A DNA stretch of 64,000 bases from Escherichia coli (GCF_017348835.2 NZ_CP071375.1); one strand, 5' to 3'; positions 32,795 to 34,408 are shown, numbered from the stretch's first letter. The notes: a model not told the origin generated them from the letters alone. Translations and numbers: made by a program.

Positions 32795-34024
32795 ATGTAC
32801 AAACAAGCTGTTATTCTCCTGCTGATGCTGTTTACCGCAAGTGTCAGTGCCGCGTTACCTGCCCGTTATATGCAAACCATCGAAAATGCTGCGGTCTGGG
32901 CGCAAATTGGCGACAAGATGGTGACCGTGGGGAATATTCGGGCCGGACAAATCATTGCCGTGGAGCCCACTGCCGCAAGTTATTACGCATTTAATTTTGG
33001 CTTTGGTAAAGGGTTTATCGATAAAGGGCATCTCGAGCCGGTTCAGGGGCGACAAAAAGTTGAAGACGGTTTGGGTGACCTCAACAAGCCGCTGAGTAAT
33101 CAGAACTTAGTTACCTGGAAAGATACGCCGGTCTATAACGCGCCGAGTGTGGGCAGTGCGCCATTTGGGGTACTGGCGGACAATTTGCGCTACCCGATTT
33201 TGCATAAACTGAAAGACAGGTTAAATCAAACCTGGTATCAGGTCCGTATTGGCGATCGACTGGCCTATATCAGCGCGCTGGATGCCCAACCCGATAATGG
33301 CCTTCCGGTGCTAACCTATCATCATATTCTGCGCGACGAAGAAAACACCCGTTTTCGCCACACTTCGACGACCACCTCGGTACGCGCTTTCAATAACCAG
33401 ATGGCCTGGCTGCGCGACAGGGGATACGCGACACTGAGCATGGTGCAGCTGGAAGGCTACGTGAAGAATAAGATCAATCTCCCTGCGCGAGCGGTGGTGA
33501 TTACCTTTGATGATGGCCTCAAGTCGGTGAGCCGCTATGCGTATCCTGTGTTGAAACAATATGGCATGAAGGCGACGGCGTTTATTGTTACCTCACGCAT
33601 CAAACGTCACCCGCAGAAGTGGAACCCAAAATCGCTGCAATTTATGAGCGTTTCTGAGCTTAACGAAATTCGCGATGTTTTTGATTTTCAGTCACATACC
33701 CATTTTTTGCATCGGGTGGATGGCTATCGCCGCCCCATATTACTGAGTCGTAGTGAGCACAATATTCTGTTTGATTTTGCACGTTCACGCCGCGCTCTGG
33801 CGCAATTTAATCCGCATGTCTGGTATCTTTCGTATCCGTTTGGCGGATTTAATGACAAAGCCGTGAAGGCAGCAAACGATGCCGGATTTCACTTGGCGGT
33901 GACAACCATGAAAGGCAAAGTAAAACCGGGGGATAATCCGTTGTTACTAAAACGACTTTATATCTTAAGAACGGATTCGCTCGAGACGATGTCGCGGCTG
34001 GTGAGTAACCAGCCGCAGGGATAA
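32795..34024 (+). CDS. yadE: secreted polysaccharide deacetylase (NodB homology domain)
   Basis: 409-aa ORF; signal peptide; TFDDG deacetylase motif in C-terminal half. Confidence 0.85.
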
Positions 34025-34027
34025 CAA

Positions 34028-34408
34028 TCAAGCAACCTGTACCGGAATCGCTTTCGCGGTACGTTTCATTTCATTGTCGCCTTCAAAATAGGCGACGTTG
34101 GGTCGCCAGGTGCGAGCTTCTTCATCTGGCATGGTAACGAAGCTAGCGATGATGACAATATCGCCGACACTGGCGCAGTGGGCCGCCGCACCGTTAACAG
34201 AAATAATTCTCGAACCGCGTTCTGCCGCGATGGCATAAGTGGAGAAACGCTTGCCGTTGGTGACATTCCAGATATCAATGGCTTCGTTTTCGAGAATACC
34301 GGCTGCGTCAAGAAAATCCTGGTCAATGGCGCAAGAACCTTCATAGTGCAGGTCCGCATGAGTCACTTTCACGCGGTGGAGTTTGCCCTGCAGCATCGTG
34401 CGAATCAT
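34028..34408 (-). CDS. panD: aspartate 1-decarboxylase proenzyme
   Basis: 126-aa [32 protein letters not shown]; Gly-Ser self-cleavage site. Confidence 0.95.

Follow-up and report, generated by a model that had tools for sequence, protein, structure and literature searches.

Two Escherichia coli genes that face each other with almost nothing between their stop codons raise the question of where their transcripts end, and of whether the overlap that results has any regulatory meaning. We considered this question for yadE and panD in a stretch of 64,000 nucleotides from the E. coli chromosome, which as a whole is referred to here as the window; with a 2.3-kb query around the junction, the locus was found in 5424 of 5426 complete E. 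coli genomes. An earlier note on this DNA had claimed that the two genes converge with only 3 nt between their stop codons, and this was confirmed by direct reading of the sequence (bases 34020–34030 are G A T A A C A A T C A), by the list of open reading frames and by the RefSeq annotation of strains PE164 and MG1655 (Table 1). In the PE164 record, which is 100% identical, yadE and panD lie at 6096–7325 and 7329–7709 of sequence L001, and in MG1655 they lie at 145081..146310 and 146314..146694, the gap being likewise 3 nt in both. The window strain differs from MG1655 by 25 substitutions and no indels over the two genes, and window coordinates are obtained from those of MG1655 by subtracting 112286. 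The product of yadE is annotated in RefSeq as a polysaccharide deacetylase family lipoprotein, with its function listed as unknown.

Table 1. Coordinates of the features at the yadE–panD junction, counted from the first nucleotide of the window.
Feature	Position	Strand	Description and basis
yadE CDS	32795–34024	+	409 aa; stop TAA at 34022–34024; ORF list and RefSeq (PE164, MG1655)
Spacer between the yadE and panD stops	34025–34027		CAA, 3 nt; sequence, same in MG1655 annotation
panD CDS	34028–34408	−	126 aa, aspartate 1-decarboxylase proenzyme; stop TGA, 34030 to 34028; ORF list and RefSeq
Hairpin H2	33993–34017	− (panD-sense RNA)	(U)GCGGCUGGU-UACUC-ACCAGCCGC(G); GC stem of 9–10 bp, 5-nt loop; folds
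Hairpin H1 with U-rich tail	34038–34076 (hairpin 34038–34063)	+	GUACCGGAAUCGCUUUCGCGGUAC GUUUCAUUUCAUU; in the last panD codons; scan and folds
Steady-state 3' end of panD mRNA	33989–33990	−	39 or 38 nt past the panD stop; Term-seq (Adams et al. 2021, PMC7815308)
Minimum overlap of yadE CDS and mature panD mRNA	33989–34024	both	36 nt; mapped end and CDS coordinates
panD read-through zone antisense to yadE, Rho-ended	33512–33988	−	Adams et al. 2021, Supplementary file 2, and composition

As a measure of how unusual such a junction is, the 40 convergent CDS pairs in 300 kb of MG1655 annotation were counted. Eleven of them (27%) overlapped or had a stop-to-stop gap of ≤10 nt: besides yadE–panD (3 nt), these were tcyP–ydjO (3 nt), ypdC–fryA (2 nt), argG–yhbX (7 nt) and ynjE–ynjF (8 nt), together with the overlapping pairs nei–abrB, yfeH–ypeB and yrbL–mtgA (−4 nt each), yhbQ–yhbS (−14 nt), nudG–ynjH (−35 nt) and cho–ves (−41 nt). 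In its own 100 kb of MG1655, yadE–panD is the tightest among 12 convergent pairs, the second having a gap of 34 nt. The view of the 3-nt gap as exceptional was rejected, given the number of sampled pairs that are just as tight or overlapping; a tight convergent junction is commonplace in E. coli and nothing special to yadE–panD. Furthermore, nine of the 11 tight pairs also figure among the overlapping transcription units catalogued by Sanmartin et al. (2025, PMC12288877).

Since there is no space for a terminator between the two stop codons, the yadE and panD transcripts must overlap, as the earlier note had argued. Published transcriptome data bear this out. With ExcludonFinder, Sanmartin and coworkers (2025, NAR; PMC12288877) defined 165 convergent excludons in MG1655, that is, pairs whose RNA-seq-defined transcripts overlap in ≥50% of 58 MG1655 samples under given coverage thresholds, and yadE–panD is among them. 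The features of a convergent excludon are thus found here, with facing neighbors on opposite strands and overlapping transcripts, of which the panD end alone has been mapped. This was the only publication mentioning both genes that a whole-word literature search returned. Nor is yadE transcriptionally silent, a possibility that the earlier note had raised: its promoter is reported to be active in many conditions, with RpoS-dependent expression in stationary phase (Reg-Seq preprint, PMC12133099). Both the overlap of the transcripts and the mapped 3' end of panD are therefore already published, and the pair is already catalogued.

The neighboring pair rpnC–panC is also listed as a convergent excludon (PMC12288877), and a strong Rho-dependent region lies antisense to rpnC (147624 −, Rho score 16.9). 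In the window strain, rpnC occupies 34682–35554 (+) and panC 35928–36779 (−), with an additional ORF between them at 35623–35832 (+). Its 69-aa product resembles the C-terminus of RpnC (...TLAQWFEE...GMSREDVAE...EIDKLIN), and the PE164 RefSeq record annotates an incomplete pseudogene there. This ORF is absent from MG1655, in which RpnC has 300 aa instead of the 290 aa found here and the rpnC–panC gap is 73 nt.

The 3' end of panD is known with precision from the Term-seq data of Adams et al. (2021, Supplementary file 1; PMC7815308), in which it is classified as 'primary panD / antisense yadE' and is the dominant end in all three growth conditions: MG1655 146275 (−) in LB at OD 0.4 (125,366 reads) and at OD 2.0 (41,034 reads), and 146276 (−) in M63 (68,010 reads). 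The caption of that file describes strings of 40 bp upstream plus 10 bp downstream, whereas the strings themselves have 61 nt; mapping of the panD string onto MG1655 showed that the 3' end corresponds to position 51, the U of ...CCAGCCGCGACAU, i.e., window position 33989. Hence, for panD, the claim that the transcript terminates inside the facing gene was borne out by experiment, its dominant end being located within the yadE coding sequence. It follows that every full-length yadE mRNA and the mature panD mRNA share a complementary stretch of at least 36 nt.

This end lies 4–5 nt downstream of a GC-rich hairpin, termed H2, with a folding energy of about −18 kcal/mol (−18.5 in one fold). H2 is encoded by the last ten codons of yadE and lies 5 nt ahead of the yadE stop codon, so that the same stretch of DNA is both protein code and the neighbor's mRNA end. 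On the panD-sense strand, H2 is followed by the tail GACAUCGUC, which holds two U residues and no U tract, and on the yadE-sense strand by AGGGAUAACAAUC, again with no U tract; it was not called terminator-like by a consensus terminator scan. A bidirectional intrinsic terminator at H2 was rejected on these grounds. A role for H2 in the yadE mRNA was likewise disfavored, since translating ribosomes would unwind a hairpin so close to the yadE stop, and the pattern of G-U pairs described below favors the panD-sense strand. A covariance search of the junction against Rfam returned a chance match only (BaMV_CRE, 18.9 bits against a gathering score of 100, E-value 0.79).

Transcription of panD extends beyond this end. 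Adams and coworkers (PMC7815308) reported a Rho-dependent region with a best coordinate of MG1655 145798 (−), i.e., window position 33512, antisense to yadE, with a Rho score of 7.18 (p 8e-27). In their DirectRNA-seq data, the reads upstream and downstream of this coordinate numbered 214 and 27 in the absence of bicyclomycin and 412 and 373 in its presence, i.e., read-through increased when Rho was inhibited. The score is computed from 800-nt windows and therefore does not fix the exact termination site. As judged from sequence composition alone, the panD-sense RNA has a modest bias of C over G, with a ratio of 1.2–1.4 over the approximately 180 nt after the stop and of 1.3–1.6 near 33585–33430, a stretch close to the reported Rho coordinate.

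Taken together, we regard it as probable that yadE–panD is an ordinary tight convergent pair with overlapping transcripts, in which the panD end arises through Rho termination in yadE and subsequent trimming to H2. The most likely origin of the panD 3' end is thus termination several hundred nucleotides inside yadE, followed by trimming, rather than a terminator at that position; this reading is preferred because the end matches the signature set out by Dar and Sorek (2018; PMC6061677). In such a scheme, RNA polymerase would continue into yadE once the ribosome is released at the panD stop codon, and Rho would load on the untranslated, C-rich panD-sense RNA and bring about termination within a few hundred nucleotides. 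Exonucleases acting in the 3'-to-5' direction would then trim the panD RNA back to H2, which would protect the message.

We compared the panD locus of 80 species representatives of the Enterobacteriaceae. In 45 of them, yadE is convergent with a gap of 1–6 nt (3 nt in Escherichia, 5 in Salmonella, 3–6 in Citrobacter, 1–6 in Enterobacter and 1 in some Klebsiella). Eight species have a spacer of 32–35 nt with an extra GC hairpin (Kluyvera, K. pneumoniae, one Raoultella and one Enterobacter), two have gaps of 61 and 158 nt, five carry 0.8–2.5 kb inserted between panD and yadE, and in the remaining 20 yadE is absent within 3 kb of panD. The extra hairpin in the 32–35 nt spacer is strong and was located at positions 3382–3416 of L030, L031, L039, L043, L046, L055, L061 and L067. 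The 0.8–2.5 kb inserts were found in Raoultella and relatives (L051, L052, L056, L057 and L065), and in L051 and L052 a U-tailed terminator lies directly 3' of panD. One sequence, L049 (CACSKA010000010.1), is labeled Chryseobacterium sp. 18061 and yet contains an enterobacterial panD–yadE locus, with a PanD 94% identical to that of E. coli; this assembly is probably mislabeled or contaminated.

Across the window and the 60 species that have yadE, which comprise 56 distinct sequences, H2 is paired in 98.4% of cells, compared with 14–57% in slid controls. Compensatory changes were observed at two H2 pairs (five cells, few independent events), an example being the replacement of Arg CGG/Pro CCG by AGG/CCT. 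The arginine codon of the stem is CGG in 57 of the 60 species, whereas at two other arginine positions close by, five or six of the synonymous codons occur. At synonymous sites, the stem codons are only moderately better conserved than some of those that flank them. G-U pairs on the panD-sense strand, which correspond to A-C mismatches on the yadE-sense strand, were present in 33 cells as opposed to 7 cells for the reverse, a bias that weakly favors the panD-sense RNA as the functional strand of H2. The hairpin is free of mismatches in 43 of the 45 species with a tight junction and in 10 of the 15 others, the exceptions being phylogenetically clustered, and it is largely intact where panD sits 0.8–2.5 kb from yadE. 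The C-terminal peptide of YadE, RL(V/I)SNQPQG, is itself nearly invariant in the 60 species, and protein constraint therefore explains part, and could explain much, of the conservation of H2.

A hairpin beside the panD stop was also observed in the absence of yadE. In a metagenome-assembled genome of Pluralibacter (L017) and in Intestinirhabdus alba (L044), yadE is lost and panD faces yadI, and a similar GC hairpin is nonetheless present 12–15 nt past the panD stop (positions 3379–3440); the stem in L017 is identical to that of H2 (GCGGCUGG/CCAGCCGC). More generally, almost all of the 80 species have a stable stem-loop that begins no more than approximately 25 nt past the panD stop, irrespective of the sequence that follows, with medians of −16.6 to −19.2 kcal/mol for the different classes of junction and a U-rich tail in only 7 of 80. 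The detail of H2, namely a mapped panD end beside a hairpin that lies in the last codons of yadE and is kept across the Enterobacteriaceae, is the addition of this analysis to what had been published.

On the yadE side, that the transcript ends inside panD follows from the geometry only, and no yadE 3' end was found in the datasets examined. The tables of Adams et al. (2021; PMC7815308) contain no primary yadE 3' end and no plus-strand Rho region near panD, and the TERMITe and SMRT-Cappable-seq supplements mention neither yadE nor panD. The sole candidate intrinsic terminator for yadE is the hairpin H1, which would set a defined overlap of approximately 85 nt with the panD mRNA if yadE transcripts ended at its U-rich tail. 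Both the consensus scan and the folds found this hairpin and its tail, and overlapping terminators are predicted in 146 of the 165 convergent excludons (PMC12288877). Nevertheless, its stem is weak (−11.4 kcal/mol) and its U tract is broken; the number of terminator-like sites in this part of the sequence is not significantly above expectation (8 versus 3.4 ± 1.8); and the Term-seq data hold no 3' end at this position (PMC7815308). Several stem pairs of H1 and the adjacent hairpin H3 are kept in just 29–45 of the 80 species (33–45 for H1). As conserved yadE terminators, H1 and H3 were rejected, since variable positions break their pairs in many species. H1 is only a weak candidate, specific to E. 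coli, and we consider a defined yadE end at this hairpin unlikely. In the absence of a conserved terminator in panD, a diffuse or Rho-dependent yadE 3' end is therefore most likely.

Somewhat less credit is due to a working regulatory excludon, in which transcription of each gene would lower that of the other through polymerase collision or through cleavage of the RNA duplex by RNase III; beta-alanine and CoA synthesis would then be coupled to the expression of the YadE envelope deacetylase. The earlier note had raised interference of this kind as a possibility, and it is physically possible, because panD polymerases run several hundred nucleotides antisense into yadE (approximately 500 nt before the Rho stop) and the two RNAs share at least 36 nt of complementarity. 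In line with it, the pair belongs to the E. coli excludome and is named by its authors as functionally related, with a common metabolic pathway; excludon pairs, pooled over all pairs, are co-expressed less often than other neighbors in single-cell data (PMC12288877); and the 1–6 nt junction is kept in 45 of 80 species. However, the capture of double-stranded RNA with p19 failed as a validation for convergent excludons as a class (PMC12288877), and the common pathway is not supported by the annotation, in which the function of YadE is the one listed as unknown. In addition, roughly one convergent pair in four is as tight as this one, and tightness alone is therefore no sign of regulation; the junction is evolutionarily flexible, with 32–35 nt spacers carrying their own hairpin, kilobase inserts and losses of yadE, which argues against an indispensable coupling; and most of the stretch over which the two RNAs must pair is taken up by a hairpin in each of them. 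We accordingly consider a working regulatory excludon quite unlikely. Should the overlap prove regulatory, the effect would be expected to fall chiefly on yadE, which is weakly expressed, and less on panD.

With regard to the panD end, H2 could act as a Rho-independent terminator, i.e., a strong hairpin that stops RNA polymerase without the help of a U tract, so that the mapped end would be the true point of termination. The sharp, abundant end 4–5 nt after the stem in three conditions and the scarcity of downstream reads in untreated cells (27 versus 214) would be in agreement with this. It is at odds with the tail, which lacks a U tract, and with the negative consensus scan. Moreover, inhibition of Rho raised the downstream signal about 7-fold relative to the upstream signal, and a sizeable share of polymerases therefore passes H2; the pattern also fits the Rho-dependent ends published by Dar and Sorek (PMC6061677). 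Termination at H2 itself was hence judged very unlikely, and Rho termination with trimming remains the preferred reading of the panD end.

A further proposal, to which we assign an equally low probability, goes beyond the interference considered above: the 1–6 nt junction would be actively maintained by coupling of the genes, selection would act on the last ten yadE codons in two ways, for the tail of the protein and for stabilization of the 3' end of the panD mRNA, and antisense transcription from panD would hold YadE down unless the yadE promoter is induced. The pair would then be a true regulatory excludon, linking the synthesis of a CoA precursor to an envelope deacetylase.

Least probable of all is that H2 has no RNA function and is a by-product of the self-complementary codons (CGG CTG ... 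CAG CCG) of the conserved YadE peptide, with the panD end at this site for no other reason than that exonucleases are stopped by any stable hairpin: the near-invariance of that peptide, the fact that CTG, CAG and CCG are preferred codons in E. coli and the mostly intact state of H2 where panD is distant all speak for it, but the arginine codon kept in 57 of 60 species is the rare CGG, its two AGG exceptions pair with the proline codon CCT, the hairpin persists in the two yadE-less genomes (one of them metagenome-assembled), some stable hairpin stands just after panD in every lineage, and the mismatches are unevenly distributed (2 of 45 tight-junction species versus 5 of 15 others), albeit phylogenetically clustered.

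Taken alone, the junction carries little weight, as tight convergent ends are frequent in E. coli and both the pair and the panD 3' end had already been published. The added value is modest and lies in one DNA stretch with two jobs, namely the C-terminal tail of YadE and the stem-loop beside the end of the panD mRNA. Deletion, C-terminal tagging or recoding of yadE would alter the 3' end of panD, and the supply of pantothenate and CoA could therefore change. Polar artefacts of this kind are possible in knockout collections and in strains in which panD is engineered for beta-alanine production.

Within the window, a comparison is offered by the hpt–can junction, an example of a bidirectional intrinsic terminator. 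These convergent genes are separated by a spacer of 40 nt (29682–29721) with a single hairpin, and Term-seq ends were reported on both strands, at MG1655 142003 (+) and 141973 (−), i.e., at about window positions 29717 (+) and 29687 (−) (PMC7815308). The signature of panD recurs at can: the 3' end follows the hairpin by 5 nt, a U tract is missing, and there is a Rho region antisense to the facing gene, hpt. Both junctions have one hairpin region serving a convergent pair; in contrast to hpt–can, yadE–panD has effectively no spacer, H2 lacks a U tract on either strand, and a 3' end was detected on the panD side only.

A close known system is that of Dar and Sorek (2018; PMC6061677), in which precise 3' ends are located right behind stable stem-loops that lack U tracts and protect the RNA from PNPase and RNase II, and rut sites follow immediately downstream. 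The panD locus differs from it in that the stem-loop lies within the coding sequence of the facing gene and not in an untranslated spacer, and exonuclease trimming at panD is proposed here. It resembles that system in its precise end right after a stem-loop devoid of a U-rich tract and in the downstream read-through signal that rises with bicyclomycin; the RNA downstream is mildly C-rich. The proposed mechanism is of an ordinary, previously described kind and not a new kind of system.
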